NCBI GenBank assembly: GCA_973895155.1
Contig: OZ316891.1
Location: 21,752,513 to 21,816,512, forward strand
Source: Marsupella aquatica
Lineage: Eukaryota > Plantae > Marchantiophyta
Reading direction: 5' to 3'
DNA length: 64,000 bases
Position numbers and translations under genes: made by a program
Shown here: one piece after another, positions 12,485 through 51,943 of the stretch
Layout of the letters: every line of letters starts with the position of its first letter
How positions within the stretch are numbered: position 1 is the stretch's first letter
Notes under the pieces: generated by a model
Seen by the model: only the letters and a program-made list of their open reading frames with translations
The model's database searches: none
What the model was told of the DNA's origin: nothing

Positions 12485-12488
12485 GAGT

Positions 12489-12512
12489 AACCCCTATTTA
12501 GATAAAACTGGA
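12489..12512 (+). repeat. Element A left TIR
   Basis: AACCCCTATTTAGATAAAACTGGA. Confidence 0.9.
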
Positions 12513-16738: not shown

Positions 16739-18040
16739 TATTTTATCTGCACATTCAATCCAAATCAAAGTTAACCTCTGTTCCTAAGATATAGTTGTTG
16801 TTTTTTTCTCTGAATATACCCAAGGGACCGTATACTTTTTGTCTTAGTTTTCCAGACCTACTTTGTTTCCCTTGTTTCTCAATAGCCTTGAACTCTCGTG
16901 TAATTGTCTGAGATGAGTTGCCCTCACAACTAAGTTGGCAGGTTGTTACTTACCATTGAGTTCAAGAAGCATTGTGTACATTTGACCCAAAACCCTAAAC
17001 TACTACATACTTAAATGATGTCTTACCACAAGATGGCAACTGCAAACCATGGTTCGCTCCATTAATGAGAATATAAAAAAAGTACTAAGGCGTATAATTA
17101 CCATGACTATCTTTTATCATATTATAGATATGAAGTGTTTCTTATGGGGTGTTTTTATAGTATTGTCATCAAGAAACAGTGTTCAGGCTAGGTTTAAATT
17201 CACCATGAATGATACATGTTAAAACAAAAGCAAATCAGTATTACAAGAGAAAGTCATCTTGCATTATAATTGTTTGATGTATAATAATTCCATCAGTTTA
17301 GAATTCATAAGAAAGTCTTTATCAAATGTATTCTATTGGACTTATGTATGAGTTTCTCTTGACCAGAATGTAAACAATATTAAAGAGAGTTATAATCATA
17401 CTTAAGCAAAGCAGGAGACTGCGGTTCATGTATCATATAGATCATGTGACTATGAACCATGGTTTGTGGCCTTTGGTCATAGTCACATTTTTATTTTTCT
17501 AGCTAGGAGTATACTAGTCAGTTTGGTAATTTACTCCTAGTTTTAGATGATGCTGTTAAATAAGGCTCATTAATTCAAGGGCTACGTACCATGATTTGCA
17601 CTCACCTTTCATTTTCCCATCTACAAGTTGAGTTAGTTTGATATGGTTTGAACCATGGTTCGAAGTCACTTTTTACATGTAGGTGTAGAGTTGGTTCACT
17701 CCGAGTATTAGATAATTAATGCCATCAGATAAGCCTCTTACTAGGCACACGAACCATGGTTCATGGTCACTTTTTAAAGTTTTGATCATCTACTTGAAGT
17801 ATTAGAGGTTTCCTAGTCACCTCAGAAGTCATTTGTTTAAGAAAACCACAACATGACAAAGGTAGGGCTCATGTACCAACCACAAATACTTATCATAATA
17901 ACATTCTCCCACAAGTTATTTGGTGTTAAATCTAGGAGAAAGCACATACATATATGTTACTTTCATTCAAGTATCTTTGTTTGCTTATATGCGTTCAATT
18001 TTAAATTATGTATGTCAAGTAACCGTCACGCTAGTTAGTT

Positions 18041-19250: not shown

Positions 19251-20045
19251 ACACATATGAATTATCAGTCTTGTGCAACCATTATTTATTTGTACAATTA
19301 ACCCAAAGTCATCTTAGCTAATTTCTATGAAAAATACATGTTTTGGATCGCACGTGGTTCCTAAGATTTTTGATAGTCAACCCCCCGAGCATCTTAGGAT
19401 TAAGGACTGTTATCGATGTTTAGGCTTAAGGTTAAATAGAGTTAACCTAAGTAATGTTTAGGGTTCTAGGGTTTCATATTCAGGGTTCAGGGTTTAGGGT
19501 TTTTAAGGGTTTCAGCCTAAACCCTAACTAAACCCTAGCTAAACCCTATAACTAAGGCTAATACTCGCCTAAGATTTCACAACACATATGAATTATTAAA
19601 CCTACTCAGGTAAACACCCCTTAATCTTATTATATCTAAACCCTAAACCCCTAAACCCTAAATCTGATTATATATATTATGTGTTTAAACCCTAGGGTAA
19701 CCCTTGATCTCTTAATCCTTGTGCAACCATTATTAATTTAACTTACTACAAGGGCCTCTCTCAGTCTTGTGCAACCATTATTTATTTGTACAATTAACCC
19801 AAAGTCATCTTAGCTAATTTCTATGAAAAATACCTATTTCGGATCGCACGTGGTTCCTAAGATTTTTGATAGTCAACCCCCCGAGCATCTTAGGATTAAG
19901 GACTGTTATCAATGTTTAGGCTTAAGGTTAAATAGAGTTAACCTAAGTAATGTTTAGGGTTCTAGGGTTTTATGTTCAGGGTTCAGGGTTTAGGGTTTTT
20001 AAGGGTTTCAGCCTAAACCCTAACTAAACCCTAGCTAAACCCTAA
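19219..20045. repeat. Local tandem duplication (~290-330 bp) with TTTAGGG/CCCTAAA telomere-like motifs
   Basis: 19265-19547 is nearly identical to 19761-20043; each copy contains GGGTTCAGGGTTTAGGG followed by CCTAAACCCTAA. Confidence 0.9.
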
Positions 20046-22250
20046 AGCCCCTGAACAACCAAGTAGTCAAACCTCATTGTGGGCGCCCATGTGGTCTCTT
20101 GTGACATGTCCATTTCAAAATTCCGGGCCAATGGTTGTGCCAGATCCAAACCTAAACAAATACAAGGTCCATTTGTGTTTGTTGTGAAACTATTACAATT
20201 TATAATTTGTCTCGGGAACTCAGGGCCAAAGAGAATTCAAATTTAACGTACCAAATAAGAATGAGGAACTTTAAACCAACCATACTTTAAATTTCTTAGT
20301 TATTCTTTTTGAGTTTTCACTATGTTTATTTAGTTCTACTCGGGTACATTAGTATTCAAAGGCGCATTAAGAGAGTTTTGGCCATTATTTGCTGTGGGTC
20401 AAAAGCCCGTTTGGGTTGAGAGTTTTTATGTTGCAAATTGGGGTTGCTCAAGCTTTTGTTGAGATTCAACCATGTACTAATTATTGAAAAATGGTATAGT
20501 TAGCTAGGAGCACTATAAACCAACCATACTTTAAGTTAGTGGGTTCTTCTTATTGTGTTTTAACCATTCTTTGTAAGAGAGAGGCAGGTGGGTTTCGGGC
20601 ACCTAGTCGGATTCCTTTGCTTAACCCTCCTATGCAGTTTACGACTGAGCTTGACCAGGCTCTTCAGTATGTTGATAGGTAGGGTTTGGTTTTTGTGTGT
20701 CCTCTTATGCGGGAAACCCTGCCTGCTGTTAACCCTAAACTGATAAATGTTTTGGCCTTTTTTGTGTTCTCCCTTGATTGGGTTTTTGGCCTGTGGAATC
20801 TTGTCTCCCAGTTGGGCGCCTTCTGCTTTTGGCAGTTTGATATAAAAAATTAGTGCTATTAGCATATGTTGATATCCAAAGTATTTCAACCTTGCACATT
20901 TTCAACTGTTGAAAGAAGCAAAAATTATTGGTGACAAAATGTAAAAGATTAAGGTCCGGATTAAGGTCCAAGACAGTCCATTATTGATCAAAATGTTGTA
21001 TCAAACTATTCCCAGATGGATAATACATGATTAATATTTTGGATGAAGCTAGGAACTTGCAAATGACACTGTTCAAGTCTTGTCTTGATCATTTCATTGA
21101 TGGTCTCTTTTCTACTTGGCGAACCCTTTGTTTTCATGGACCTGGGGGAGAATGTAAAAGTAGATTAAGGGTCCAGGCATTATTGTAAGTGTCCGTTATT
21201 GCATTGTAAGTGTCCATTATTGTAAGTAGATAATTTGTGAGTGACTGTGGGAACTAAGCAAAGAGATAGCACTAGTCTAAACCCTAAAGCCCCTGATTCA
21301 AACCTTAACCTGGGGTTAGCCTTAGTCAAACCTCATTGTGGGCCCATGTGTGGGCCCTTGGGGCATGTCCATTTCAAAGTTCCGGGCCAATGGTTATGCC
21401 AGACCCAAACCTAAACAAATACAACTATGTGTGTTTTTTGTGAAACTACTACAATTTATAGTTTGTCCCGAGAACTCAGGGTCAAAGAGAATTCAAAACT
21501 AACGTGCCAAATAAGAAGGAGGAACTTTAAACCAACCATACTTTAAATTTCTTAGTTATTCTTTTTGAGTTTTCACTATGTTTATTTGGTTCTACTCGGG
21601 TACATTAGTATTCAAAGGCGCATTAAGAGAGTTTTTGGCCATTATTTGTTGTGGGTCAAAAGCCCGTTTGGGTTGAGAGTTTTTAAGGTGCAAATTGGGG
21701 TTGCTCAAGCTTTTGTTGAGATTCAACCATGTACTAATTATTGAAAAATGGTATAGTTAGCTAGGGGCACTATAAACCAACCATACTTTAAGTTAGTGGG
21801 TTCTTCTTATTGAGTTCTAACCATTCTTTGTAGGGGAGATGCAGGTGGGTTTCGAGCAACTAGTCGGATTCCCTTTCCTCCTAGTATGCAGTTTACTCGT
21901 GAGCTTGACCAGGCTCTTCAGTATGCGGATAGGTAGAATTTGGTTTTTGTGTCTCCTCTTGTGCGGGAAACCCTGCCTGGTGTTAACCCTAAACTGATAA
22001 ATGTTTTGGCCTTTTTTGTGTTCTCCCTTGATTGGGTTTTTGGCCTGTGGGATCGTGTCTCCCAGTTGGGCGCCTTCTGCTTTTGGCAGTTTGATGTAAA
22101 AATAAATTAGGGTGTGTTCATGGACCTGGGGGACCATGTAAAAGTAGATTAAGGGTCCATTATTGTAAGTGTCCATTATTGTAAGTAGATACTCTAATAA
22201 TTTGTGAATGTGGAAAGCAAGGAGATAGCACTAGTCTACACCCTAAACCC
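20035..22250. repeat. Direct duplication of a ~1 kb block
   Basis: 20035-21290 is repeated at 21280-22250 with an internal deletion; the ORFs at 20560-20889 and 21817-22176 are near-identical. Confidence 0.9.
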
Positions 22251-22436
22251 TTTTGATGGCTTTGATTAAAGCTGCTGTTGCATACCGTGAAGCTGGTAGA
22301 AAACAATTGAAGTCTTTTTCAAAACAAGTACTGTATAAAAATGGTAATTATGCAACAGCAGCTTTCGGCGAAGCAGGTTTAAGCAACACAGTCAAAAGGG
22401 TATGCAATAGCAGCTTTAATCAAAGCCATCAAAAGG
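22249..22436. mobile_element. Small MITE-like hairpin element, ~38-bp TIR
   Basis: CCTTTTGATGGCTTTGATTAAAGCTGCTGTTGCATACC versus GGTATGCAATAGCAGCTTTAATCAAAGCCATCAAAAGG. Confidence 0.8.
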
Positions 22437-23458
22437 ATAATTATGTAAGAGCAATGCCATGCCTAACGGCAAAAAAATGGAGTACAAGAGCAAGTCCCAG
22501 AGCAAGTTAGGATGGGTTTACCTCAAACTCCCTAGTAGAATAATCACAACTGAAGATACTTAGTTGAATCCGGGGTTGAATCCTGATATGTCTAGTTAAT
22601 CTGTACTAGAAATTGAGAACTCCAAGTTGTGTTGAATCAAATGGTTATACCTTGGTTCTTCAGCTGACCATAAACAATACGTTTGAAGACCATCGCATAG
22701 GAACCATCTACCACCCCTACAGAACCAAGATACATTAAGTTGTCAGATGAACTACTGCATTTTGATAAACCTTAAAAAGAACCTAGCTTTCTTATAATGT
22801 GACAAGCATACTACGGCTTAGAGAACAAATTTCTAACCACAACACTTCAAAATCCAGAATTAGACTCCTGGACCAACATGAAAAGATCTCACTGGACGAT
22901 CAATCTGTTAGGTAGAGACATAACTATTATCTCCAAGTTTCCCCATAAGTTCCACATAGTGATTAAGTCTTTACTTTGTTACTCTACTATATAGGTTTTG
23001 ACTCTCTGTTTTGGCTTTTTGTAAGTATGTGGTGTTGTGTTTGCAAATTGTTGTTGTGTTTGAATTTGGCATTGTGAGATGAAATCATAGTGCTCAGGGT
23101 CTCCAGGAGCATTACCAGGACGGAGCTCAAATGCATTGTACGTTCTCAATAATAGATTAACACTTGAAAAGTTTGAGGAAAACCCTGGGTAGTTGTGAAA
23201 ATAAGGGTATTTTGGTAGGAAGCACATCCATGAGGTTATAAATATCTCCTTAGGGATAGTTAGCTCAATGAATCTTTGTGTGACCAAAAGCTATTGGGAG
23301 ACAAGAAATATCCTTCAAGAGGGCCTCTTCTTTTGCTCAAAATTATATAATTTCCAAAATCTTGATATTATTTTTAAGAAACCAAGGGTCATAGTCAAAG
23401 AAGGGGAGTGTCATTTTTCTATTTGTCCACAAATCATTATGCAATTTGATCATGTAAA

Positions 23459-23486
23459 CCCTAAACCCTAAACCCTAAACCCTAAA
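23459..23486 (+). repeat. Interstitial plant telomere repeat (CCCTAAA)4
   Basis: Four perfect copies. Confidence 0.9.
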
Positions 23487-31190: not shown

Positions 31191-34100
31191 ATGGCATCCG
31201 AAGGAGAAACTAGCAAGAAGAAGCGGAAGTCTTTGGAAAAAACTGATGGAAGCCCAAAAAAAAGGAAAGCGAAAGTTAGAAAGGGTGTCACAGGAGTGAA
31301 TTCCATCACTAATTTTTGTGGGAGGAAGATGACATTGAAATCCACCATCACCGATACTGTTGTCCGAGTTGAACAGAAAGATATGAAGCACTGGGGAGTG
31401 GTGCTTGATAAGAATGTTCTTCGGATGTGCGTCGCTTCTGAAGAGGGGACTTTGGTATTGTCAGACTCTCGAATTCTCAGTTGTGTTTATGAGAAAAATG
31501 TCAACCTGAAAGACTGTCAAGAGGCTTTGGTCCTTCTGGTCGAGGAGGATACCGTCGATGAATCACAAAACAATAGGATTTGCTATTGTTTCTCCATAGA
31601 GGTATTTGGGATGTTTGACCAAACATACATTGAGGCAAATTGTAGATTATCTCCGGAGGCATTCTCAACCATTTTGGATCCCACATTCCCAAAGGTTTCT
31701 ACACTCATAAATGGCCCAAGCATTGAGAGGTACATGTTATCCATCTTGGCATGGGCAAAATGCACCTTCCCGGAAACATTTCGTGTTGGAAAGAAGGAGG
31801 AACTTGAGAAGCAATCCAAGTTTGAAACAGGAGAACTTCCAAAAGTGATCACTGGAGAAAACATTGGAGATCTTTGCAAGAGTTTCAATGGTGTTTATAA
31901 AAAAGCAAACATCTTTGATAGTAGAGTTTTCAATGTTGAAAATTTGAAATGCCACATTGCACCCAATGTTGTAAAATGTAGAGGACATGACCCTGATTAC
32001 TCAAGGGACCTTGCCAACTCGATGAAATTTCAGTCGTTGGTAAATTTTGAGAAGCGGGTTTGTTTCCTCATCCCAGTGCTTTGGGATGAGAGCAGGAGCA
32101 CTGAAGTTGGCTATTGTGGGACTCCATTGTCACACCCACCGATCCTTGATCAAATTGACAATTATCATTTTTGGATAATTGGAGGCCAGCACACAGTAAT
32201 AGCTTACCGATTACTTTTGAATGATGAATCAGTGGATGCTGCTATTCATCAAAAATGCCTTACAATTGATGCCGTGATGTTTTGGGCACCATATGATTTG
32301 GCTGGGAACCTGGTAATGATGGGATTATCAAAGACATTGAATCATGTCCATCACACAGCGATGGATGAATCCCAATTTTTCTTGATTGCAAGACAGGTCA
32401 GAGATATTTGGAAAAGTTATGGATGTCCTCCTTCAGAGACAAACAGCACCAAAGATTCAAAATGGAAGGTAAGAGTCATATATTTCATAAGTTTATTTTT
32501 ATTCTTGTTTAACTTCTGCTAGTGCATCTGAATGCAATAGAATGTGAAAAGTATAACAGTGTGAACCATGGTTCGTATCCACCTAATGATTTTAGTTGTG
32601 TGTGAACAACACTTCTCAAAAGCAGCAATGATCGTCATCCCTTGGGCTAAAGAGGAGAATGGAAAATTTAATTTGGGTGAACTTGGACCTTTCATCTTAA
32701 ATATGATAGATTCCACCTTCAACTTGTGGATGAAAGTTTACGAGATGTCAAGAGAAGGAAAATTGGTTGCTTTCAATGGGTTCTTACAGAGAGATGTTAT
32801 TAAGAAAGATTCTGCTCAAGGAGCTTGGGAGGTGGCACGAAGAACATTTCGGGATTTTCTTGGTGTTGAAGATGCAGTGTTGATGAAGATTGCAAGGTAT
32901 CTTCTTACCAATAAGAAGATCTCACTAATGAAGCAACGAAGTAGCGGAATTGCAAAGAAGATAGATGCAGTTCCTATCGAAGAAGATTTCATTGCTCTTG
33001 ATGAGTATTGCGTTCAAAAGAAGCAGGATAAGGAGTTTGAGATACTGCTTTTGAAATATCTTGCAAAAGATAATATGCCTAAGGGGAAACTACGAGCGTT
33101 GCCCATGGAGCAGAGAATCGAGAAGGTGAATGCAATGCGAGCTTTTTTTAAGCTTACTCCAGATAAAGTTGAAAAACTTTGAACTACGCTTGGACCTGCA
33201 GTAATCCCAAAATCATTAACGAAGAACACTGGAAATGACGAGTTGCAAAATCTTTTGCCTGGAGTTTTTAAGAGTTTGATATGGTCAATCAGGGCTTCAG
33301 TGGATGGAAAAGGTAATCCGGTGGTTGTGAAACTTGACCCAAAACTTAGGTTTTGTTCAAATGAGGGATTTGGAACTCCTGCATTTTTTTGTCCAATCAT
33401 CTTGGAATTGAAAGAAATGGCAACATTCATATTCTTGGATGCTACCATGATACCTGGAATAAGTCCCATGACACGGAAGACATATGAAGCATTCTTTGAT
33501 GCAGCTTCTATGATTGGGTCCAAACCATCTCATGTCGTGGTAGTGATATCATCTGCGATCGACTCTTTCTTTGTGATGAGTGCCATTTCAGCACACCCAC
33601 ATTATGTTGCATTCACAACACAATACTGGACACAATCTCGACCGTCATCTTCTACATCGACAATTTATGATGTCAATTGTCTTTTTGTAACTTATGCATT
33701 CTTCAAAGTGTCATTCACTGAAGAATGTGAGGCAGATGAGATTTCTGGAAAAATTTTGTTAAGCTTTAAGAAAGCAGGATGTTTGAAGAATTATGAAGAG
33801 ACAACAGAAGATGTTGCAGAGCAGACTCAGTTTGGGGAGAAAAGCAAGAGTTTCTATGATAACTTGACTTCTCAACTTGTCTCATTTGACAAGTTTTCTG
33901 TCTGTTTTGGAGATGGCCGACATCTGATCCACTCCCTTTTGGTATGAGTTTTTAAACCCCAAACCTTACAGTTGAAAGTTCATTTAATTATTCAACTATA
34001 TTGAAATCCCAAGTATTAAAACTCAGTCTCATGGTTTTGCAGAACTTGGGAGCTCGGGTACGTTCATATTGTGACGAGTCTAATCACGAAGGACTTACGC

Positions 34101-36660
34101 AGTTCTTTTCTTCCACAAACAAGTTTAATCATGATCAGCCTGAAGAAGCATCATGTGAACTTCGAAGTATTTTAGAGAAAAATATTGCCAGATTGATGAA
34201 GTATAATTTGGCCAAGAAGAATATGAGAGAGGACATTATTGAGCTTTGCAAAGATACCTTACACCTTGGTGAAAGTAGTATTGCTCGTGTGATCAAGGAA
34301 TATGGATTGGGCAACATTCCTGAATCAGATGACAAAGTCTACGAAATGCCAACCAATGTTCCTACTGATCCACTTGGAGGTTAATATGACTACCATTTGT
34401 TATAAACTACCATATTCAATAGCTAATGATGAATTAAGTAGCCAAACTTGTCATATGCCAGATATGAATCATGAATTATAAATCGATGTTCTCAAGAGAA
34501 TGATGTACATGATTTGATATAGAATGATTGATTGATGAAAATATTAGAATGAACCATGGTTGGAACAAGTTGGATGTGTGAAGTTAGATAAATTTATCAA
34601 GACAATATAGAACCTATTATTTGGTATAGTCCAAACATTTCAAATGGATAATAATTCCAACTAGAGTTGAAGCAAATACTAATACGAACTGAACAACCCA
34701 ATCATAGTTTTAACTTGTCAAATGAATCGCTTAAATTCTATAAATAGATTAACTTACTCTGGAATTTTGTGAAAAATTAGATTAGTACTTAACATAATAT
34801 AGAAAACACTTGTCTAATACATCATGTAGTCATTGAAATTAGGCAAAGCAAACTAATAGCGATATTTAATAAATAAAAATAATTAGAAGTTTATTGGTTC
34901 ACCATATTTATCTATTGTTTGTTGTTTTGGTTGTAGGAGATGAAACCAATTCTATTGAGGACGAGAACAAGGATGAGGACGAAGAGGATAACATTGATTC
35001 CCCGAATGCTTGGCAGCCACTAAAGTTGGATCACGTGGAATCACCAAATGATTCAATGGAAATTCTTGACTCGTTCAGGGCTTTCCAAACCGAACCAGAG
35101 CTCAATGTCGAGGAACAAGGAGTTTCAATGACCAAAGGAAGATGCCCTACCTCAAATCTAAATGCAAAGAATGTTAAAAATATCCAATCAAATTGTAGCC
35201 GTGCTGGGGTGCAAGAATCAAATCAAAGAAACAAAAATGAAGTGGCATTTGATGAAACCAAAAGTAAAAATGAGCGAAGAATGATTGTCCGCAAATTTGT
35301 GTGGGAAAATTATATTCCTGATCAGGAAACCAGTTGCCCAGATCACATTTCTACAATAGATTGGGATGAGTTCTTTCGAAGCGAAGCTCAATTTCATGGG
35401 TGGAAAGCAAGAGCATATTGGCATGAAGCTTTGACTCATCGCTCCGGTTTGGAAACCCCTGAACAAATCACTAATTTACAAGATAATGTCTATTATGCAA
35501 CAGAAGTATGTGAAATGGTTGGAGATCCTCCTATTGATGTTTTTGCCATTCAAAGTGAACCTAAAAGCACTATTAACAAATGGACTTGGATGAAGGAGTA
35601 TCAACTAATCTCCAACCCTATCACTAACTCTATAGATACACCCGTGTCTAATCTTAATGATGCTACACTAGATACATGTGCAGTTTATCAAAGTGATTAT
35701 GAACAAGCAATCATCCAAGATTTGGGTGTGAAGAGAGATGATTCTTTCATTCCAAACGAGGAAACAATAAGAGACAATGCTTTGGTCGTGAATCCAATGG
35801 TGGAGCAGATGGATCCTTTACTGGTTGAAACTAACATTTTGGGCACGTCTCCCATATCGACAGAGCAAGTAAATGTTGATGGTGATCCAGTGGAGAAGAA
35901 AATGGATCCTTCAATGGTTGAAACTAACATTTTGGACGTGCCTCCCACATCGACAGAGTCAAGAAATGCTAACAACAACCTAGCAAGGGAGCAGATGGAT
36001 CCTCTAGTGGTTGAGACTAACATTTTGGATGTGCGTCCCACATCAACAGAGCCAATAAATGCTAACAATAACCTAGCAAGGGAGCAGATGGATCCTCTAG
36101 TGGTTGAGGCTAATATTTTGGATGAGCCTTTCACATTGACAAAGCCAAGAAATGTTGACAGCAACCTAGCAAGGGAGCAAATGGATCCTCTAGAGACAAG
36201 AAATGTTGAAATCAATGCACAAGTGGATCCTGTTATGATTTTGGCCGAAAAACCAAAGGTGTCTCACACATCGATGGACCCTAAAACAAATGAGAGTGAT
36301 TTGTTGGTAGATAGTGAAGAACATCCTTGGATCCAACAAGCCACTAACCTTGAAGATCAAGACATACCGGAGGTGGGAAAAATTGCGCCTTGGGAAGAGG
36401 AAGCATCTGCTGCAGCCTACGCTGATGGATTGAATGAATTACCACCTCCTTTTTTGGGGATCCCATTAGTTTCAACTTCTCATGGAGATTGTTCACAAAC
36501 GACTCCGGCAACAAGAATGGAGCTTCCTAAGACTGGTTCCAAGGTCATTCCAGGTCGTGCCACTCGACGGGATTCAAAGAGACCCTCGGTGATAGAAAAA
36601 GTTACTATGCTGCCAAAGGTGAAGAAGACACCTCAGCAGATTTTGCGCAACAAGAAGTAA
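31191..36660 (+). pseudogene. Element A cargo gene: NLS, ParB-like domain, degenerate amino-MTase-like fold, acidic/repeat tail (4 exons)
   Basis: KKKRK/KKRK NLS; YHFWIIGGQHTVIAY; FIFLDATM...EKSKSFYDNLTSQLV...CFGDGRHLIHSLL|NLGA; donors at 32469, 33942 and ~34380; premature TGA at 33180 (Arg in the paralog); homologous to 49229-44450. Confidence 0.75.
35803..36192 (+). repeat. Coding tandem repeat, 93 bp (31 aa) x ~4
   Basis: EQMDPLVVETNILDVPPTSTESRNANNNLAR-like units. Confidence 0.9.
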
Positions 36661-36778: not shown

Positions 36779-37589
36779 GTGTATAGTATCAAGGAAACTT
36801 ACCCATTATGGTTGCAAAAGTCATTGCAACAAGATAAGAGGGAACACTTCCAAATATGGATCAATACTCAGTATATTCGTGATCATGGAGATAGAAATCA
36901 TTCAAGGAGATTCCATGTGTTTAATAATCAGGGTACATTTTGGACTACTTATCACACTTATTTGTAGAATGAACCATGGTGCATAGTTAATTTATGACAT
37001 ATTTTTGGGTACTATTCTAAATCTCATCTGTGTGTGTTGTGTACAGGTGAGAGTTGAAAAATTATTCAGGAAATTACTTGTCATAAGTATCAACAAGTTC
37101 CTCATTTACACAACTGGGGTCTCTCGTCATTTGAAGAAGACATCATCTTTCCGAGTTTATAACAAAATGATCTTTCCGAGACCATATGTACAAGAATTTC
37201 TTGAATTTTGCACTTCAACTTTTGATGTGGTTCTTTGGGCACTCACTGACACATGCAAACTGGCTGATCAAATGGATCCAATACTCACAGATAAAGCTTT
37301 GAGTTTTTCTGGTCTTAAGTATCTTACATCAACTTTGATGGACATGAAACAGATCAATGATATTTATCCACAATATCAAAGACAAAATGTTATATTTTTA
37401 GAGTGTTATCCATCATTTGATAGTGTAAATCCAATGTATTCAAGGCTGTATCCCAAGCCGTATTATGGTAATTGTAAAGACAATTTTCTTAGAGGCACAC
37501 TTATTCCATATTTACATAATCTAGAAGATTCTGGTCAGACAGCGCATAAGTTTATTAAATATCACTATCCTACTTGGTCTGAAGTATGA
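36779..37589 (+). CDS. FCP1/SCP (NIF)-like HAD domain exon (37047-37589) plus a C-terminal remnant of a second one (36779-36920)
   Basis: KLLVISINKFL...FPRPYVQEFLEFC...FDVVLW...DNFLRGTLIPYL; catalytic DxD replaced by SIN. Confidence 0.75.
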
Positions 37590-38759: not shown

Positions 38760-38783
38760 TCCACTTTTATCTAAATAAGGGTT
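38760..38783 (-). repeat. Element A right TIR
   Basis: Reverse complement AACCCTTATTTAGATAAAAGTGGA, 22/24 identical to the left TIR. Confidence 0.9.
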
Positions 38784-38842
38784 GAGTGTTGTCAACCTAC
38801 ATACGTTGAGTTATTGTTGGGGTACTCATAATGTATTTATCG

Positions 38843-39107
38843 CTCGGGGGTTTCACTTCCACAAAAATGGCATATCACGTGCGACGAAGTATAGGGTCAT
38901 TTTATTGGTTCAAAGGGAAGACTTAAGAATTTTCTGAGAAGAACAATAGAGTTTTTTAAATCAAATTTTGATACTTATAAGAACATTAGTATCCTTATAA
39001 TCAAAATTTAACTTTATAGGGGTTGATTTTTTTTTTAAAATTCTTACATTTGAGGGGGTCCAAGGCCTAAAATGATGAGGAGGCATCCATATAGTGAGAC
39101 CCCCGAG
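38843..39107. mobile_element. MITE family M, copy 1
   Basis: TIR CTCGGGGGTTTCACT / AGTGAGACCCCCGAG; 8-bp TSD ATTTATCG / ATTTATCA. Confidence 0.9.
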
Positions 39108-39115
39108 ATTTATCA

Positions 39116-40592: not shown

Positions 40593-40864
40593 TTATAACC
40601 CCAATTTAAGGAAAACCAAACTTTGGAAATTCCGAAAATAACTAAATATTATTATTTTAATAAAAAAGGGGCGACATGACGCGTGGCTGCGCGTGAAACC
40701 CTGAAAATGACTGCAACGTCACATTTTAACCAATCCAACTTGACGGGACCAAGAGACATGCTCACGCGAATAATAGTAATAGAGAAATAAATCTTTGAGA
40801 TCCTTTATATATGATAATCAGTATATAAGGAGTTTACAAATGGTTTCTAGAACGACAATACAAA

Positions 40865-41600
40865 TTAATTTGATCTCATGCCGACTATTATTTTGGAAGC
40901 GTCCAAAATTGGGCGTCTGTTAAATTGCTCTACTAGATATCTATCTCCATGCCTCAAAATCACAGGGTCTTCCCATAGAGTATGATTATAATCATAATCT
41001 CTAAAAATATATTTAACTGACCAATTAGGATAATCTCTTCCATTGGCAATGACAAGCGGCTCACAAGAGTTTGCTAGCTTGCTAAGATACGGAATCAGCA
41101 AGTTAATCAGGAAACTGTCGTCGACCGACCCAAAATATTTGGGCGGAAATAATGATCCAACAACAGGATCTAAACAAGCATGAAATGCATCGGATTCGAT
41201 AAGCATTATATTTTGCTACAGATATGCCTTCGTATAAATTCCAACCTTCTCAAAACACTTCAAAAATATCCGCTTATTTGATGTCACCCCATCGCATAAG
41301 TAACAATGAGACTGATCCCAAATATACTTAAATGAGGCCATTTCCATCGCAGTAAAAATAGATGCTAAAATTTGATCTAAAAGGTTCTTCCCAAGAGAGG
41401 ACCAGATCCCTACATCGAAATTCTCAAAACAAAATCTCAAGAATTCATGAAGATGAGGCCTTGGAAAAACGTATATATTCCCATCTGAATTCCAGTTGAG
41501 ACCGCCATCAGTCGGGAATGCGGTGCAGTGTAATAGAGTATATGCTCCATGTCTAAAACTATGAGCCCAGGCATTTTCTTTGCTGCAATGAATCTCCTGT
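40865..41600 (-). pseudogene. FCP1-like HAD domain #3 (element B)
   Basis: LIVLDMEHIL...FPRPHLHEFLRFCFENFDVGIWSS...DDSFLINLLIPYL; frameshift, and TAG at 41216. Confidence 0.8.
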
Positions 41601-41682
41601 AGAGAAACACAAGAAGATGCATGAGCCCGTATGGATGTAGTCACGCGAATGGTCGCGTCACATATTACAGAGACAACATCCT

Positions 41683-42390
41683 CTACACTCTGGCCATTGA
41701 TAAGTGACGTCTGTTGAAGTGCTTGATAAGAACTTGATTCGCATGTCTCTGCACGTACAGATTCTCCCATATATCCTCGTTCAGATCCCAATCTCGATGT
41801 AGATTTCTAATCGACCAGATGGGATAATCAAACTTGTTAGCAAACGCAAGACAAAGCCCTGAATTTGATAGCTTTTGTAAATATGGAATGAGGTCATCCC
41901 TCAAAAAGACATCATCCAACGATCATTGAAACGACTTAGCGAACAATAATCCGCATACAGCTGTCTGGCATGTATGGGAAGGATAGGCATCAATTTGGAT
42001 TATATTCTCTGGTTGATAATCTTGAAACATATCATGTAGTCTCTCGATAGATTTGAAGACAACAGTCTTATAATTTTTCTTCACATAACCAAGATTCCAA
42101 CAATGATCCTACGTGAACACATATATCAACTGCGACAGGTCGGTGCTCGACAACACTTCTGAAAGTATCTAATAAACCAGTTTATCATTGAGAATAGACC
42201 AGACCATCACATCAAAATGATCATAACAGAATTTTATAAGATCATGAAGATGCGGCTTCGGAACGACACATAGAGATCTGATACGAATTCCGGGTGTTGA
42301 CTTGAGCTGAGGAGTATATTTTGAAACAGAGCACAGGAAGTTTGCCAGTCCTAAAACCAGAAGTTGACGCGACCTGCTCCACTTAGACAC
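41683..42390 (-). pseudogene. FCP1-like HAD domain #2 (element B)
   Basis: QLLVLGLANFL...PKPHLHDLIKFCYDHFDVMVWS...DDVFLRDDLIPYL; in-frame stops. Confidence 0.8.
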
Positions 42391-42521
42391 CTATAAATGA
42401 ACAATTCGATTCTCATATTATGCAATTGCAAACAACCACGCGATCGGGCGCGTCACTCCCAAAATATAAAGTTCAATTTCAATCAATTTATAAATAATAA
42501 TTGATAATAAACAATAAATGT

Positions 42522-43292
42522 TTACTTATTGGACTTATCCCGGGCTTCTATAGCATGGTCTTTTTCGGCAGATAAGTATTTCATAAATTTGTCAAACTTT
42601 TCTAAATGGTCTTTATTCCCCTGATTACGAATGATCACATTTCTCCTCCAAAGATTTGTCTTATCAATATAATCTTTCTCAAGATTTTCTTGAGAGAACG
42701 TTGGAATCCCATATCCACTAAGGAGCTCGCGGAATGTCAACTTGTCAATTGACATGTCGCATAGATATGTATATAGTTTCTTTCTAAAAAATAGGTCATC
42801 ATCGAGCCCAGAATATGCATCGGGATACAGCGATGAATAGAAGTCATTAAGGCTCGTCTTATATGCAGCATCATCGATAAGAATGACATTCTCGATGTTG
42901 TAATCTTTAATATTGGCGGCAATGTTGGAGAGACATTTGACAAATAAGGGGATGTCATTATTATTCTTCCCAATAAGTCGAGTTGATTCTTGTCCCCATA
43001 TAAATTTAATACGTTTCAAAACTTCGGGTCGAAGTATCAGCCTTACACAAGATAGAATATTTCGTTTGAACATGCACGACCAGATCGCAATGTCGTATAG
43101 ATCTACCACCTTCTCAAGAAATTCCATTAAATCAGGCCTTGGATAGATAACCTTGTGCATCTGTCTCACACCCCTTGACCGAATGGGCATCCCAGGGCTG
43201 ATCTTCTCTGACCAGATAAGTACCCGATTCAGATCAAAAATTACAAGTCTCTTTTGAACCGGTGACTTCTTTGCCGATGGATTAGGCGCCAT
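42522..43292 (-). CDS. FCP1/SCP (NIF)-like HAD domain #1 (element B)
   Basis: KRLVIFDLNRVL...YPRPDLMEFL...YDIAIWS...NVILIDDAAYKT; the exon probably starts at 43427, spliced in frame to ULP1. Confidence 0.85.
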   Translation of the reverse strand: MAPNPSAKKSPVQKRLVIFDLNRVLIWSEKISPGMPIRSRGVRQMHKVIYPRPDLMEFLEKVVDLYDIAIWSCMFKRNILSCVRLILRPEVLKRIKFIWGQESTRLIGKNNNDIPLFVKCLSNIAANIKDYNIENVILIDDAAYKTSLNDFYSSLYPDAYSGLDDDLFFRKKLYTYLCDMSIDKLTFRELLSGYGIPTFSQENLEKDYIDKTNLWRRNVIIRNQGNKDHLEKFDKFMKYLSAEKDHAIEARDKSNK

Positions 43293-43513
43293 CCGTACCT
43301 GTGATTTTTGTGCCGCAGGGTTTGGAGAACGTACTAGAACGGTCTATTTGTTTCCCGCCTCCGGACGATCACCGGACTTCCGGACTGGTGCCTTCGATAC
43401 TCGATCAGGGGGTTTCGGGATAGGCTTCTGTAAAACATTAAGAAATGAAAATAAGTTTATAACGTGAACGGTCGCATGACTACAAAGGAAGACACTAAAA
43501 TGAAGTGTATTAC

Positions 43514-44303
43514 CTGTACAAGACGGTTGTTCAGTGCTGGAATTCCGCCGGAAATGTCAATCATAGCAGCACGGATCCCGGTAACTAGGTTACTTGCGGA
43601 TGTTGGCTTGCGGAAGTCCATGTCAAATAACGACAAGACTATCTCCCTACGAAATTTCTCAATTTGATCCAAGGAAAAATTAATTCTGTTTCCTTGACAC
43701 AAGCACTTGGCGTATCTCAAGATAAACACACCACAACTGTGGCCGTCACTCTGGTGAGGAATATCATTCCGATATATCCGTTCCCAACCTGAGAGATCCA
43801 AGTTGACACCAGTTCTCCAGCCAATTTTGTCGGCGTAGTACTTCCCAACAATATCTAGCACCCCAGGATTTTGTTGATTATGAACTAGAGAATCTAGGTA
43901 CCCGAGCCGTTTCTCCTTCGGATACACAACTACCAATGACCAATGTTCTTTCACAGCATTGTGTACTGAAAAGACCAGTTTGTCGTATTCACTGATTTTT
44001 AGCGGAAACTCCTTTGTCCAAGCTGCTCTCTCCTCATCGAAAATGGTAGGATCCATGGAGAGAAGCTCAAAATGGTGTGTTTGGAAGAATTTGACAAGGT
44101 CTGACTTTCCAACTCTATCGAGAATCAGTTTGAGAAAACTCAAATAAGCGTTAATTATATCATCGGTGAGCAACTCGCGCGGTCTTAGACACATCATATG
44201 TTTCCTCTTGATCGAGTGTTGTAAGAACTTGGTCAATAGCTCTTCCATATCCTTAGAAGGATCAAGGCATTGATCTATTCGACTAGCCAAATTTTCAAAA
44301 AAC
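43514..44303 (-). CDS. ULP1-like SUMO protease (peptidase C48) domain exon
   Basis: LLTDDIINAYL, EHWSLVV, YLDSL, QSDGHSCGVF: intact His-Asp-Gln-Cys catalytic residues. Confidence 0.92.
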
Positions 44304-44449
44304 TGTAAAAAACAGAGATTTCAGTACGCCTTCAAATAACGTACTGAGGTTGTAGCCTAAGGGTTCTACCTCAAAAAACAGAAACAATAACAAATCAATA
44401 ATAAAATAATGACGTCTATAATAGAAACTTTAAGCTTATAGCTTGCGAA

Positions 44450-47400
44450 TGACCTTTGGATTGGGTGGATCCGGCCTTTTTGCAGCTGATCTCTTGGGTG
44501 CCTCAATCGCAACAACATCCTTCAGCCCTCCTCGAGACCGCAGTGATCGCTCCACCGGACCAGTTTGCGAAGGTTGGAGCGATGAGGCGGGAAGACCTTC
44601 AAATGGTTGTGGCATTTGATTCAAATATTCCACAATCTGGGAATCCGATTCCAAAATATCCGGTGCCACAATTTCTGCGCGAGTGACCTGTGCAATATAT
44701 CAGGGTCAAGACCACGAACCCGGTCGTGTCAAGTCAGCTGTTAGTATCTTAACGACTTGAGCCGAGTCTGGTGCCAAAGACGTTCCCAGGTCTTGCACTC
44801 GATTCTCAAAAAAGCGGACATTATTGATGATTGTCTCCATTCTGGATGTGCAGTGGTAGTCTTCTCCTCGGTAATCAAAAGACCCTTCCAATATTGCAAA
44901 GCAAGGACTGCCTGGACTCGGAGCTGCTCCGGTGAATATTTATTCCAATCATCCAATGAGACCGTACTTAAGGGTGGATCGTTAAATTCAAACTCCGGGC
45001 GAAGAAAATAGTCTAATATTTTCTTCTTAACTGCAACTGAGGGTGAAGAAGGCTCCTTCAAATTTAGCTTTATTTTTGGTAGATGTTGTGCCTCAGGAAT
45101 AAGCGAAAGATCCTTAGCCCTCTCGGCCTCCTTCCTCGCTGCCTCCAGTCTTGCGGCTTCTTCTCTCTCCAGTCTTGCGGAATTGACCTTTTCCGCCTCC
45201 AACTTCTCCGCCTCCACCCTCTTCGGTCTTGCGGTCTCGTCCGCCATCCTCTCGGCCAGCAGCCTCTCAGCCGCCACACTCTCCGCCTTGGCCCTATTTG
45301 CCTCTGTCACTAAAAGGACTCTCGTAGCCTCCGCTTTCTCAGCCTGGGCTTTCTTCGCCTCCGCTTTCTCAGCCTCGGCTTTCTCAGCCTCGGCTTTCTT
45401 TGCCTGGGCTTTCTCAGCCTGGGCTTTCTCAGCCTGGGCTTTCTCAGCCTGGGCTTTCTCAGCCTCGGCATTCTCAGCCTCGGCTTTCTCCTTCTTCTTT
45501 GCGGCAGTTGCTTTTCTAGCTACCGCCTTTTTCTTCTTAGCCTCCTTCTTTTGAAGCTCCTCTTGTCGGGCCGCCTCTTGTCGGGCCGCCTCTTGTCGGG
45601 ATGCCTCCTCTTGTCGGGCCGCCTCCTGCCGGGCCTCCTCCTGTCGGGCCGCCTCCTCCTGCCGGGCCGCCTCTTTTTTTTGAAGCTCCTCTTGCCGGGC
45701 CGCCTCCTGCCGGGCCTCCTCCAGCCGGGCCTCCTCCTCCTACCGGGCCGCCTCCTCTCGGTCCACCTCATGTCGAGGCTCATGTGTGGCCTCTTCATCA
45801 GAGTCTCAGCGTCCTCAGAACCCTCCATCTCCTCGTCCTCTTCATCAGCATCCTCAGCGTCCTTCATCTCCTCTCCGTCACTCTCTTCATCTCCTCTATT
45901 ATCGGAATCTCCGACGTCGTTCTGCGTATCGGTCATCCACTCTAGATCTTGGTCATTGACATCCCCATCCGCGTCACCTTCCGTGTCACCTTCCCCCTCA
46001 CCATCCGCATCACCATTGCTCCCTGCATCCTCAACATTGAAGCCGCAGTCGACTTGATCTTAATAAAATCAGATCATTTGATAAGAATGACTCACGCGCA
46101 TATTCGCGTGAAAAGAAATGTTAAGAATGTCCACGCGCATGTTCGCATGATGCAATAAAAAGTAAGAGGTTTCAAAAGTAACCTATCTTGGATTGGCCCA
46201 CTAGGGTACTCCGTTGGTCGAATGTACAATCGATCGGAATCTTCAGAGAGTGCATACTCTTGCAATAATTGATTACAAATATTATCAGGGATATGTTGTT
46301 CGTGGAGGACATCCAAAACATCAGCCCTGAGAGCAGTTACGGATGGACGGTACTTCATTAATTTATCTATACATTTTTCTATACTAGCCCGTACTGGGTC
46401 AATCAATGACAGCGTTGTATCAATTGTCACCGTGGTGTGTTGCAAGAAACAAGACAACTCCCTATGCATTGCCACAAGGCAGTAATATTTTACATTGGAT
46501 CCAGCATCCTGTAAAAAAAGCCAAAATTAGTTCACAATATTAATTGAGAATATAATAATCTAAATAATCTTAAAATCGAAACCCCAAAATATAAATCTCA
46601 AAACTTACCATCAAGCACTGGATCAAGTTCGTTCCCTCACCGAAGCATAGAGCCCATTCCCCACATTGGACGAATTGACTAACAATACTTTCAAAGAATG
46701 GAAGTATCTTTTCTGGGGAAGGTGTCGTGAACTCGCCGCTCTCTTCAAGATTGGCTATCTTCTCAATCCGATATTTGGAGACCAATTGGAACTCGAGGGC
46801 TTGTGGATCGCCCATTGTGTTGAAGGCCAAGCTGTGAAAAGCGTAGGTTACAATAAGCTTCTTCTCCTTCGGCCGCTTCTAAATATAATGGCTATCGACA
46901 GCAACGTAGTGTGTGTACTTCCCTAATTCCCATTTGATTAAGTAAGACTCAATGGGAGAGGCTACAATAATAACCACATGGTGTGGTTTTGCCCCTATCT
47001 CGCTAGTAGCACGAAATAACCCCTCATAGAATGAGCAATTTGGCGCACGCAAATCTCCCATTGATGAGGGATCAAAATAAATCAAGCTCGCAAGGTTCTT
47101 GTCTTCACGTATGATACAATCCGCAAACCCAGCATTTTGTATATCCTACAGGGATCGCAATTTCAGCCTCTCACCAACCGGCCGCACTAGTTGGTTTCCT
47201 TGACTATCAACTGATTTATGTATTCCTTCCACCAACCTGTAGAATATCGGGTCGATCTCTTTCAACAAATTATCATTATTAATATTTACATTTAAGCACT
47301 TCTTCAGATAACCACTCAACGCATCTCTCAACTGCTTCAACACCATCTTGTCGAGCTTAAAGCGATCAATCATTCCTTTGACCCGCAATTTCCGCGCTGA

Positions 47401-49229
47401 ATCTGTCAGACTTTTCAGCTCCGTCCGGGTGGATGTATTCCCGTTGAGTTTACTCAATAATAAAATCTCAAACTCAACTTTCGTCTTCTTCTTTATACAT
47501 AATTGCTCCAAACTCATGCTAGTCGTTGACAACATTGGAGCCTCAGAGGACTTCCTCGCCTTCCCAGATTTCACTTTGATGCTTTGGTTTTTGAGTATAG
47601 ACAGTCTTCCGCTCAACATATATTCTGTTGCCTTTCGAAGAACCGAGTTTGAGCACCCTTGACAAGAATGGAACGTCTTCTTCAGAAAGATGATAAGCAC
47701 ATGGATTATCCGCAATTTTGACGGCGTCCCTCTGTAAAATTCCGTTGTAAATTACAAGCTCTCCTGTCCTTGATAGTTTGTAGACCTCCATCCACTTCTT
47801 GAATGTTTTGTCCTCCATGTAAAGAGAAACAGAGCCAATTCTCCAAATTTCATCATTTCGTTCATCCCCATTTGAGCCCATGGGCAAACAAAACTCTAGC
47901 TCTCATAAATACCTGAAAAACAATGGAAACATGACAATTCTAAGATTGACGCGACCGTTCGCATGAGAAAAATTCTAAGCTTGACGCGACCGTTCGCGTG
48001 ACAAAAGTTTAAATGATAATGTGATCGAAGAGGATTATTTATATACCTTCCAATTTGGATGATGATAATGTGATCCAGGCCGCCCAAATGAGTTCCAGAT
48101 ATTACGACACTGTTGTACAATGGTGAGAAACTGTCCTTCCATTGATGTTTGATGACAGTGGTTCAGAGCTTTCGATAATCCCATCAAATGAACATTATTG
48201 TCGTTGTTGAGCGTTGCCCAAAACATTACAGCTTCTACAGTACCGCAAGCGTCTCGTACAACTTGGCTGACTTTGTCGTCCTCTTTCAATCAGCAATTTG
48301 TACGCCATTATTGTGTGCTGGCCTCCGAGTATCCAAAAATGACTGGTCATAATGTCCTCCTCCTTTGGCGCCGAATCGTAGGGCGCCCCATTGTAGTCAA
48401 GATCTCTGTCGGCCTCCGACTGAACCCACTTCACAGGGACTAAAAAGCAGCATCGCTTTTCAAACTTTATAGTCGAATGAGAGAGGAGTGAATTCTTTAG
48501 CCTACCTGTGTAATCATGATTCCACTCTCGGCACTTGATATGGTCCGGTGCAAGATGACAACGTGATGTCTCAACAAAAAATGACTTGCTGTTAAATATA
48601 TTCACAGCACTATATTCTTTGAGGAAAGAATCGAATAGAGCCCCGACATTCGCTGAGGTAATTACTTTCGGAAGATTCTTCGCCGAGTATACTTTAACCT
48701 TGGTCACTGGCGGGGCCTTTCCCAAGCGAAATCCCTGGTTGAAAGGAACTCTCTAGAACTCAAGTACGTCAATAATGTATTGACAAATCAAATCTCCCGT
48801 TGATCCCTCTGGATCGGAAGGATATCCCACACTAGTAACCTTTTCCAAGGCGTGCCTTGCATCTAGAAGATCATCGATTTTGGACTGATTGAAGGTTACG
48901 TATTGCGTTTGATCCAAACAAATGCTTATTTTGTCCTCTTGCTGGTCGTCGCTAACTAGCAGAACCAATCCCTCTGTACACTCTTTAACTTTCATGTTCT
49001 TCTCAAAGAAACACCCAAGAATTTGTGATCTCTCCAAAACTGTAGCTTTATCATTTTTTGCCACCACAAGACGGACAACCTCATTGCGAACAACTATTCC
49101 AAAATCGGATATCTCAGTCGATTCAAAGAGATGGATACTCTTTGTCTCCGTTGTTCTCTCTCTGATTGACTTTCCTCGATATGCTTTAGATGAATCTCTT
49201 TTCCGCTTTGAAGTTCCGGTAGGATCCAT
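44450..49229 (-). pseudogene. Element B cargo gene: ParB-like, amino-MTase-like, acidic and EK/AR coiled-coil regions (continues into ULP1)
   Basis: HFWILGGQHTIMAY; LIYFDPSS...PSPEKILPFFESIVSQFVQCGEWALCFGEGTNLIQCLM|DAG; in-frame TAGs at 48753, 47146 and 46879 plus frameshifts; collinear with 31191-35500. Confidence 0.78.
45300..45760 (-). repeat. Coding low-complexity repeats (15-bp AEKAE/Q and 18-bp EEAARQ units)
   Basis: GCTTTCTCAGCCTGG and GCCTCTTGTCGGGCC arrays; minus strand reads EEAARQ and AEKAQA. Confidence 0.85.
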
Positions 49230-49304
49230 TCTGAAATAGACAAATATTGAAAGTTAAACGTTTATTATAAAATACTAACACGCGCATGGTCGCGTCGTGC
49301 CGAA

Positions 49305-49780
49305 TTACATTTTAGGAACGTTTATCTTGACCCAATCTTCTCGCTCATCTTCATCTAACCAAAACCAAAGGTTCCTAAATGTGTCAAGTTTAGATCCTTC
49401 AAATCCACCCAGAATGTCCAGTGGCGGGAGAGTTCTGATGGATTCTGTAAATCTGAATGCTACACTCCGTGAAGGCAAATGCCTTTGAAGCGATTCATAT
49501 CCTGGTCTATCAGTGAAGTCGTAAGCTACCAAGGTGACCGTCGCCCAAGTACTACTATAAGTAACTATGTGGCACCACTCCTTACTAACTGTTCGAATGG
49601 CGATCAAGTCCATGACCCGATTTTTAATCGCATTATCCGAAGACAGTGGAAAAACTCTTTGACTAATGGCCAAATATATTTCTCGACAATATCGTCCGGA
49701 AGACCGGGTATCAGGTCTTCAGCTTGACTCCATATCATGTTTTGGTTCATAACCTTTGCACGTGCAATGCGCTCCATCAT
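49305..49780 (-). pseudogene. F-box-like unit 3
   Basis: LIPGLPDDIVEKYIWP...LIAIRTVSKEWCHIV, with a frameshift. Confidence 0.6.
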
Positions 49781-49889
49781 CATTTGATGATGAGATTTCG
49801 ATTCATGTCAAAGGACTGCAACATAATATGGAAAATATTAAGAACAAGAACCTATCCATTAAGAACTGGGACCACCTAGATTCTGAGAA

Positions 49890-50425
49890 AATCTACCAAA
49901 CCTTTTGATTAGAACATCTCGTTCTTCCTCATCTAAATAGTTATATTTGTTCGTAAACAATAAGATTTTGTCAGAAGTAGTAGTCCCAAGAACAAATATT
50001 TCTGGAAGCATAGAAATATCTTGTCAAATAACTCGACAGATTGAGTCAAACTCCAACTCGTCAGTTTCAGGTATGTAGTAAAGTGCTTCATTTGCGTCAT
50101 CGACAATCCGGTTTGCTTGTTTGAGGATAGCCCATAACCTTGTATTTGTAACTAAAAAGTTCCACTTCTTGCTACAAGCTCCAAGCTGAATAAGGTCTCG
50201 GACCCTATCGATAACCAAATCGTTATCGGGGTGTCGATATCGACGCAATCCTTCAATTGAAATAAAGTGTTTGTAGAGTATTGGCCAAATGTTTGAAATG
50301 ACCAAAACATCTGGTATTCCTCCAATGAGACTAGAGGAGGTTTCATCCAGCGTATCCCATATTGTTTTCTGTTTCCTTTCATGAGATGAAAGGAAATCTC
50401 GAGCCTCATTCAAAAGTTGGCTCAT
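49890..50425 (-). pseudogene. F-box-like unit 2
   Basis: LIGGIPDVLVISNIWP...LGACSKKWNFLV; stop at 50024 with homology continuing beyond it. Confidence 0.6.
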
Positions 50426-50490
50426 CCTGCTTTTATCATATCACAAAACATTGTTAGAAGACATATGATGCGCTTGGTCACATAAGTTAA

Positions 50491-51042
50491 CTAGAATTCC
50501 TTAAAAGCGTAGATGTCACCCTCAAGGTATCCAACTTTGTGGCATCTGACTATAAATTTCCATTTTTCAAGAGGGTGAAGAGCATCGTAAGTCTTCGTGA
50601 AGAGTTCCCTAAGATCTCTGGACATTGACCCCATGAATTTAATTCTTGGGTATTTCTGGAAGAAACTTTGAACTGTCGATGAGAGAGACTCATTTCCGAT
50701 CGGTTTAGTAGGATTTCCTGGGAAAGCCAAATCTAATAAACTCAACTTGATTACACCCAGAAGATAGGTATTCCCAACAAGGTGGCGCCATCTGCGACAC
50801 ACCGAAGATAGTCCTACAAACTCATCCAATTCCTTTATTGAGAAATTTCTTGCATTAGCCAAGGAATTAAAAGACTCCTTGATCCGAGGCCATATCAATT
50901 CTGCGACAATGAAATTTGGAAGTCTAGGTAGTAGTATTTCAACAAATACAGAATATACCGCCAGTAGACCATCTTGGCTTCTGTCCAAAACGTTAAATAT
51001 TGGGCATAGATATCTGAAGCTCTCCAGACCAGGTTTGCCCAT
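50491..51042 (-). CDS. F-box-like unit 1
   Basis: LLPRLPNFIVAELIWPRI...LSSVCRRWRHLV. Confidence 0.65.
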   Translation of the reverse strand: MGKPGLESFRYLCPIFNVLDRSQDGLLAVYSVFVEILLPRLPNFIVAELIWPRIKESFNSLANARNFSIKELDEFVGLSSVCRRWRHLVGNTYLLGVIKLSLLDLAFPGNPTKPIGNESLSSTVQSFFQKYPRIKFMGSMSRDLRELFTKTYDALHPLEKWKFIVRCHKVGYLEGDIYAFKEF

Positions 51043-51183
51043 GACTCTTTTCAGCCAAATGATATATCCCAGAGATTATTTTCACGCGACTGGTCGCGTC
51101 TACAAATCAGAATGTATAAACAATTCTTTGAGAGACTGTGATTTTGTCGGGTCACAACGTGACAAATCATAAATGTTGCTTCG

Positions 51184-51910: not shown

Positions 51911-51943
51911 GCTCAAACAACTTTTGGACACTATGATAATACA

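Follow-up and report, generated by a model that had tools for sequence, protein, structure and literature searches.

What does a very large transposon do with a protein that is predicted to join a ParB-like domain to a degenerate DNA methyltransferase? The question is raised by a gene at 31191-34384 (+) of a 64,000-nucleotide stretch of the liverwort Marsupella aquatica (contig OZ316891.1), here called the window, which is repeat-rich eukaryotic DNA with introns and TTTAGGG runs. The gene lies in element 1, a 26.3-kb transposon of Sola1 type at 12489-38783, and we are highly confident that it is a Sola1 ParB-pseudomethylase accessory gene. With a chance that we consider slightly better than even, the accessory protein of this giant element likely binds the element's own scattered palindrome and, acting at long range, likely regulates the element so that it can still be expressed.

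An earlier note, made from the letters of the window alone, had the gene end at 34380; its start held, but the stop codon ends at 34384. The gene is composed as follows.

31191-32468, + strand: exon 1, with a basic N-terminus, a tentative PH-like domain (amino acids (aa) 42-198) and a predicted ParB/Srx domain (aa 242-390) carrying GGQHT
32469-32609, + strand: intron 1, with a GT donor, CAA at the acceptor and one palindrome at 32564
32610-33941, + strand: exon 2, a helical region of about 240 aa and then a predicted beta-class methyltransferase fold with degenerate motifs
34043-34384, + strand: exon 3, likely the strands that complete the methylase fold, then a helical tail; preceded by the GT-AG intron 2

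The junction of exons 1 and 2 is supported by the homologues P0006, P0011, P0021 and P0060, which are continuous across it. A related gene lies in a second element (element 2).

46092-49253, - strand: ParB-methylase-like gene of element 2, the second copy in the window and the more decayed

The likeness of the two copies greatly exceeds chance and marks them as homologues (tblastn E 4e-71 and 1e-48, 29-54% identity). The motifs that the earlier note had listed were present in both elements where it had placed them: FWIIGGQHTVIAY (32169-32207), FIFLDATM (33426-33449), GEKSKSF (33834-33854) and CFGDGRHL (33903-33926) on the + strand of element 1, and FWILGGQHTIMAY (48338-48300), LIYFDPSS (47085-47062), EKILPFF (46713-46693) and CFGEGTNL (46647-46624) on the - strand of element 2. 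In the element 1 gene, NLGARVRSYCD follows at 34043-34075 (+), 3′ of intron 2.

The element 1 copy of the gene is broken. It has a premature TGA at 33180-33182 and has lost the splice acceptor of intron 1, which reads CAA in place of CAG (32607-32609); homologues read Gln at this position. Contigs from four of four public runs carry C at position 33180, giving an Arg codon, and these include near-identical contigs with 3-4 differences per about 300-350 bases, so the stop is private to the window copy or allele. The same runs hold further copies, about 82-85% alike and at higher depth; in exon 1, 22 of 35 differences from the public-run copies, counted in the best-listed rows only, fall at third codon positions. 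The element 2 copy is interrupted by three in-frame TAG stops and by several frameshifts.

A structure of exon 1 was modelled with 28 sequences (predicted local distance difference test (pLDDT) 79.6). The Foldseek search showed that the top 10 matches all have the ParB/Srx fold, with middling E values of 0.009-0.03, and the top seven matches in VIA were of the same fold, the best being PadC (Z 7.9, root-mean-square deviation (rmsd) 2.8, 98 aligned) with KorB tied (Z 7.8, rmsd 5.0, 120 aligned). The top structural matches thus comprise ParB, Noc, sulfiredoxin, PadC and KorB. Atlas, which uses language-model features, gave the domain a ParB_N score of 0.92. Weak sequence matches were to DUF6551 in seven of 13 rows, to the DGQHR family TIGR03187 in four, and to DndB and GmrSD_N in one each; DUF6551 we take to be akin to ParB. 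Upstream of the domain, aa 42-198 showed a weak PH-domain likeness (Z 4.2-4.7). The pattern W-I-x-[DG]-G-Q-H-[ST]-x-x-A was found in 13/13 ParB rows (one a duplicate), with an upstream Arg in 11/11 and a downstream Asn in 12/12; one lineage outside that alignment has the variant DGQYS. The His and Arg of the corresponding sulfiredoxin box bind phosphates (PMC4619093; here and below, papers are cited for the part of their text that was available), and the change from Arg to Thr or Ser therefore alters the site.

Atlas also brings the ParB-like domain (31908-32468, aa 240-426) close to fungal DUF3723 clusters (score 0.95), 78% of whose members carry PF12520. DUF3723 is a conserved Starship cargo of unknown function, and the main text of the paper describing it does not use the word 'ParB' (PMC9156397); DUF3723 may also be a ParB-type domain. 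In Pfam scans, PF12520 was listed for no member of the present family.

Exon 2 was modelled with 24 sequences (pLDDT 83.4). Foldseek matched this model to CcrM (E 4.3e-6), and so did VIA (Z 13.6, rmsd 3.5, 173 aligned), which placed model residues 243-444 on chain residues 3-227. The first 19 VIA rows were all permuted-class enzymes, and comparison with viral models agrees. The VIA alignment of the model with CcrM bears out the order that the earlier note had read by eye, with motif IV before motif I as in beta-class N4-cytosine/N6-adenine (N4C/N6A) methyltransferases. Both of the proposed folds, ParB/Srx and beta-class methyltransferase, were thus recovered from the models, the opposite of the outcome that the earlier note had named as refuting it.

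The motif-IV Asp was kept in 17/17 aligned domains, where it was matched to the D of DPPY by a forced global alignment that is itself not significant. PPY was present in 0/17, and [DNS]PP[YFW] in 23 of 29 beta-class enzymes used as controls. Homologues with an intact (D/S)PPY, which the earlier note had suggested looking for, did not turn up: the catalytic (D/N/S)PP(Y/F/W) motif occurs in 0 of 129 family proteins. Motif I is recognisable yet variable across lineages (CFGDG, CFSEG, NVFGGS, SLYAG). That the methylase half is catalytically dead across the family is well supported by these sequence comparisons, and it has likely retained the methylase fold but not the chemistry. An aspartyl-protease identity for this part was rejected; Atlas gave such clusters only scores of 0.80 or lower.

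A phmmer search of 1.84 billion representatives yielded 49 related proteins (E <=0.001), and two of the 10 relative clusters examined bore a species name, that of the liverwort Calypogeia fissa. The ParB profile added 34 proteins among 4,027 candidates, and 19 metagenome loci (numbered with L below) were obtained among 34 pattern matches. Distant members of the DGQH type have the same domain order and intron position as the window gene, and their exon 2 is homologous to that of the window (E 6.9e-14 over 378 columns, with disjoint profiles). In L016 and L018, NIF-like genes lie downstream, as in both window elements.

The ratio of nonsynonymous to synonymous substitution rates (dN/dS) over three locus pairs was lowest in the ParB domain (0.11-0.15), followed by the helical part (0.23-0.31) and the methylase fold (0.33-0.59); in the close pair L001/L002, with few changes, the values were 0.24, 0.34 and 0.36, respectively. 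All three parts are under purifying selection, the ParB domain being the most constrained and the methylase the least. The earlier view of a catalytically dead module is therefore upheld for the methylase half but does not extend to the ParB half, where constraint is strongest and G-Q-H, the upstream Arg and the downstream Asn are retained.

Pfam detected neither domain in the window protein, and as Pfam and NCBIfam both miss the gene, routine annotation does not show it. Profiles run against PDB sequences produced chance matches only, and no long relatives of 747-2130 or 1013-2890 aa came out of word-seeded searches, which is weak evidence. The earlier note had also proposed a prokaryotic origin: the fold agrees with this, but no relative was found in prokaryote genomes, searched with one exact pattern, or among GenBank phages. 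One marginal 26-residue viral match was obtained with L020. Tests for a sequence-level link to bacterial and phage beta-class enzymes detected none.

That the gene is carried by a transposon was shown for element 1 by its ends.

12485-12488, unstranded: left target-site duplication GAGT, 4 bp
12489-12512, + strand: left terminal inverted repeat, starting AACCC, 22/24 match to the right end
38760-38787, - strand: right terminal inverted repeat, ending GGGTT at 38783, and right GAGT duplication
12971-16783, - strand: Sola1-type transposase gene (DUF7869, Pfam PF25273, E 2.9e-35), with one intron and an in-frame TGA at 13874-13876

At the 22/24 level the window contains 14 inverted 24-mers, and only the 12489/38783 pair is flanked by a 4-bp duplication; the others are telomere-like runs and the two gene copies. 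AACC-type terminal inverted repeats (AACCC...GGGTT) with a 4-bp duplication agree with an assignment of the element to Sola1, with one published element as the yardstick. The accessory gene is divergent from the DUF7869 transposase, and no genes were assigned in approximately 12 kb between them.

What the protein might recognise is suggested by repeats outside the coding sequence.

14533-38120, unstranded: palindrome AACCATGGTT, 15 exact copies, clustered upstream of both genes and in introns
41643-51905, unstranded: element 2 palindrome ACGCGAC-N2-GTCGCGT, 11 copies with at most one mismatch, 0 copies in element 1
40597-40616, + strand: Sola1-type end of element 2, starting AACCC, 16/20 to the element 1 end; CpG content rises here

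All 15 exact copies of AACCATGGTT are inside element 1 and none is in a coding exon; the copy nearest the left end is about 2 kb away from it, and 0.7 kb separates the right end from its nearest copy. In the right arm of element 1 the top palindrome count was 9, against a shuffled maximum of 4. Own palindromes were also found in L001 (13 copies), L003/L004 (10 and 11) and L010 (five, upstream), and L009 has a non-palindromic repeat in 12 copies, so that six lineages have one private non-coding motif each, palindromic in five. When five motifs were compared with nine sequences the result was a clean diagonal, with no motif in another lineage. Across four loci, one of 46 copies was in a coding exon, and in four lineages copies lie within introns of the accessory gene itself.

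The CG/GC count was 449/459 (0.98) in element 2, 364/877 (0.42) in element 1 and 245/563 (0.44) in the left flank of the window, and the CpG rise coincides with the element 2 end. The observed/expected (o/e) CpG ratio was 0.77-0.9 in lineages with a CG-bearing motif (element 2, L001, L003) and 0.27-0.4 in those with a CG-free motif (element 1, L009, L010). The CpG-retaining island spans 40597-54000 (o/e 0.8-1.1), with its genes broken; the remainder of the window has 0.13-0.64.

From motif layout and fold we infer, with fair confidence, that the accessory protein binds its own element's motif, in the way that ParB binds parS. The sequence would be read by the helical region that separates the domains, and the ParB domain would be nucleotide-binding and gate loading, through a site altered from Arg to Thr or Ser. 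The dead methylase may be kept as a structural module, for example for dimerisation or DNA contact. The outcome would be anti-silencing or activation in the manner of VANC; anti-silencing as the protein's effect we rate as less likely than not. A bolder version, which we regard as somewhat unlikely, is that the giant Sola1 elements of land plants use ParB-parS-like self-recognition, in which the protein of each lineage, a clamp gated by a nucleotide and held as a dimer by a dead bacterial methylase, would load on its private palindrome, spread along the element and exclude host CG methylation. If true, sequence-specific anti-silencing would have arisen independently a second time, from bacterial parts, and protein and motif would be changing in step.

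Several results weigh against own-motif binding and long-range regulation by the accessory protein. Sequence comparison gives no significant link to methylases (local E 0.2 versus 0.26 for the reversed control; global E 0.0034, probability 3.9%), and the ParB match is middling (Z <8; Foldseek E 0.009), with the phosphate-binding Arg of the box replaced by Thr or Ser in all 13 rows (one duplicate). No DNA-reading domain was assigned in the protein, and the helical region of about 240 aa between the domains had no structural match in searches that barely test it. The transposase and second end of element 2 were not found within the window, and the transposase was reached in none of the family loci. 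In L011, L013, L015, L016, L018 and L019 no palindrome exceeded what shuffled sequence gives. The CpG content of element 1 is as low as that of its flanks (0.37-0.39 versus 0.43) and its breaks are changes of the C-to-T type in CG and CHG contexts; being CpG-poor and broken by deamination-type changes, it was therefore not protected from methylation. Finally, the CpG pattern sets three lineages against three, with hosts that differ outside the window, and causation may run in reverse, a CG-bearing motif lasting only in unmethylated DNA.

The rival that survives best, although we think it unlikely, is a transposition factor, in which the protein would coat the motif array and bring the ends, 26 kb apart, together for the transposase. 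TnpA of En/Spm is the model for such a factor. ParB-fold proteins load and spread on DNA (PMC10164549), and giant elements of more than one superfamily, which face the difficulty of synapsis over a long distance, carry ParB-like accessory genes. The motif, however, clusters at promoters and introns, away from the element ends.

It is rather improbable that the motifs and the CpG content are unrelated to the protein, in which case the transposase or a host factor would bind the motifs, and the CpG of element 2 would reflect either Polycomb silencing, which acts on transposons in liverworts, or recent arrival from a less methylated genome. Six of the 15 copies are in the transposase region, and a third Sola1-type end, at 60512, is 19/20 alike to that of element 2, yet its transposase is CpG-poor (0.30), both consistent with this rival. 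Evidence for a connection comes from the ParB fold, from motif copies in the accessory gene's own introns in four lineages, and from the like pairing in red algae.

Slightly more improbable again is an auto-repressor, with the same binding and the opposite sign, which would damp the element's own genes. KorB, tied for the best structural match, represses through dispersed operators on plasmid RK2; the motif clusters upstream of both divergent genes, and element 1 lacks CpG protection. Repression would leave the CpG-rich island of element 2 in a CpG-poor genome unexplained.

We consider it very unlikely that the methylase fold retains activity, or pairs as an inactive subunit with an active enzyme, and places N4-methylcytosine or N6-methyladenine (4mC/6mA) on the element as proposed for algal proteins. 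In its favour, the motif-IV Asp is invariant (17/17), a motif-I-like stretch persists in some lineages (NVFGGSK, DIFGDGS) and inactive partners such as METTL14 occur in the fold class (PMC4738411). Against it, all members have lost PPY, motif I is free to vary, constraint is weakest in the methylase part, and neither the two elements nor the family loci were seen to carry a gene for an active methylase.

The combination of ParB and methylase in a transposon is already published for algae. Sola1-1_Ec32 of Ectocarpus is a 21.5-kb element with AACCG-CGGTT termini and a 4-bp duplication, which encodes a 1104-aa protein with ParB and N4C/N6A methylase domains opposite the transposase (PMC12477816). 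The window element resembles it as a giant Sola1 element of more than 20 kb, with AACC-type termini, a 4-bp duplication and the same domain pair, in a protein of about 1,000-1,100 aa, opposite the transposase; the likeness is one of architecture. In the alga, however, the methylase was proposed to modify the element, whereas all members seen of the window clade lack PPY, and the host is a land plant. The string 'palindrom' is absent from the main text of that paper.

In Plavaka elements of Bostrychia, which carry the accessory genes PAG2 and PAG3, the ParB-like PAG3 adjoins inverted-repeat arrays and its product was proposed to bind its own element (10.1101/2025.02.11.637652). These too are giant DNA transposons with a ParB-like gene near inverted repeats, but the transposase is EnSpm/Plavaka, ParB is fused to a 2-oxoglutarate (2OG) oxygenase, and a further gene encodes the adenine methylase along with a SET domain. 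VANC of Arabidopsis VANDAL is likewise element-encoded, with a short motif that is dense in introns and upstream and varies between related elements (PMC5735166). This comparison is one of motif layout, the motifs of the window family lying, as VANC21 targets do, in introns and upstream of genes; VANDAL is a Mutator-type element, and demethylation has been demonstrated for VANC (PMC5735166) but is only inferred for the window family.

The bacterial CTP clamps ParB, KorB and Noc and the DGQHR types (DndB, GmrS, DpdB) share with the window protein the ParB/Srx fold, [DG]GQH, the upstream Arg and the downstream Asn (PMC4619093, PMC10164549). Here, in contrast, the box ends in Thr or Ser instead of Arg, no helix-turn-helix or ParA partner was assigned, the gene has introns and the host is a eukaryote. 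The beta-class enzymes CcrM, M.MboIIA, M.RsrI, rotifer N4CMT and Marchantia DN4MT1 share the permuted fold, with about 170 residues aligning co-linearly (Z 10.9-13.6); the window family lacks (D/S/N)PPY, whereas DN4MT1, according to a preprint, has TSPPY and is an active host enzyme.

Our literature search, outside which lay Iyer 2011, subscription papers and preprint supplements, found nothing on the land-plant clade, a family-wide dead methylase, lineage-private motifs or CpG retention with CG-bearing motifs. For the algal ParB-type accessory genes the earlier guess was methylation of the own element; in the plant clade the methylase looks dead yet is kept, so the point is likely recognition and not mark-writing. 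Lineages with their own motifs offer a ready protein-by-motif matrix, and elements 1 and 2 a CpG contrast within one genome. Were the protein to slide on DNA as a clamp and shield chromatin, this would explain the persistence of very large transposons in genomes that methylate DNA, and would provide a programmable locus-wide epigenetic tool.

Both window elements carry further genes as cargo.

34873-36660, + strand: low-complexity acidic open reading frame (ORF) of element 1, with 93-bp repeats and no Pfam match
37048-37589, + strand: NIF/FCP1-like HAD domain gene of element 1 (Pfam PF03031, E 8.5e-10)
40865-44320, - strand: three NIF-like domains and a Ulp1 protease domain of element 2 (Pfam PF03031; PF02902, E 8.9e-18)

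NIF/FCP1-like HAD domains (37048-37589; 40865-43343; L016 4519-6805) accompany the accessory gene in distant lineages. The first motif of active NIF/FCP1-like HAD enzymes is DxDxT; that of the cargo domains looks degenerate (LVISIN, IFDLNRV, IFELNNI), and judged by these letters the proteins are possible pseudo-phosphatases. Nested in element 1 at 19265-23486 are telomere-like TTTAGGG runs and duplications of 0.5 kb and 1.25 kb. Upstream of the element 2 gene copy lie three weak F-box-like ORFs (49305-51075; Pfam E 0.004-0.02), and a GAGAGC-type low-complexity tract at 53026-53492 is followed by decayed ORFs (54400-56400), gag-like by eye and with no Pfam match. A 335-codon open frame at 7204-8211, outside the elements, also has no Pfam match.

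The transposase at 61.3-64 kb was considered as element 2's own and rejected, as it has the wrong orientation, lacks the element 2 motif and is low in CpG. It belongs to a third Sola1-type element at 60512-64000, whose end at 60512 is the one 19/20 alike to the element 2 end; its DUF7869 transposase is decayed, has about 70% DNA likeness to that of element 1 and is broken up by a short repeat. An element of about 290 bases is present in three copies about 80% alike (38843-39110, 59877-60158 and 63180-63480), one of them inside the third transposase, and is likely a non-autonomous transposon.

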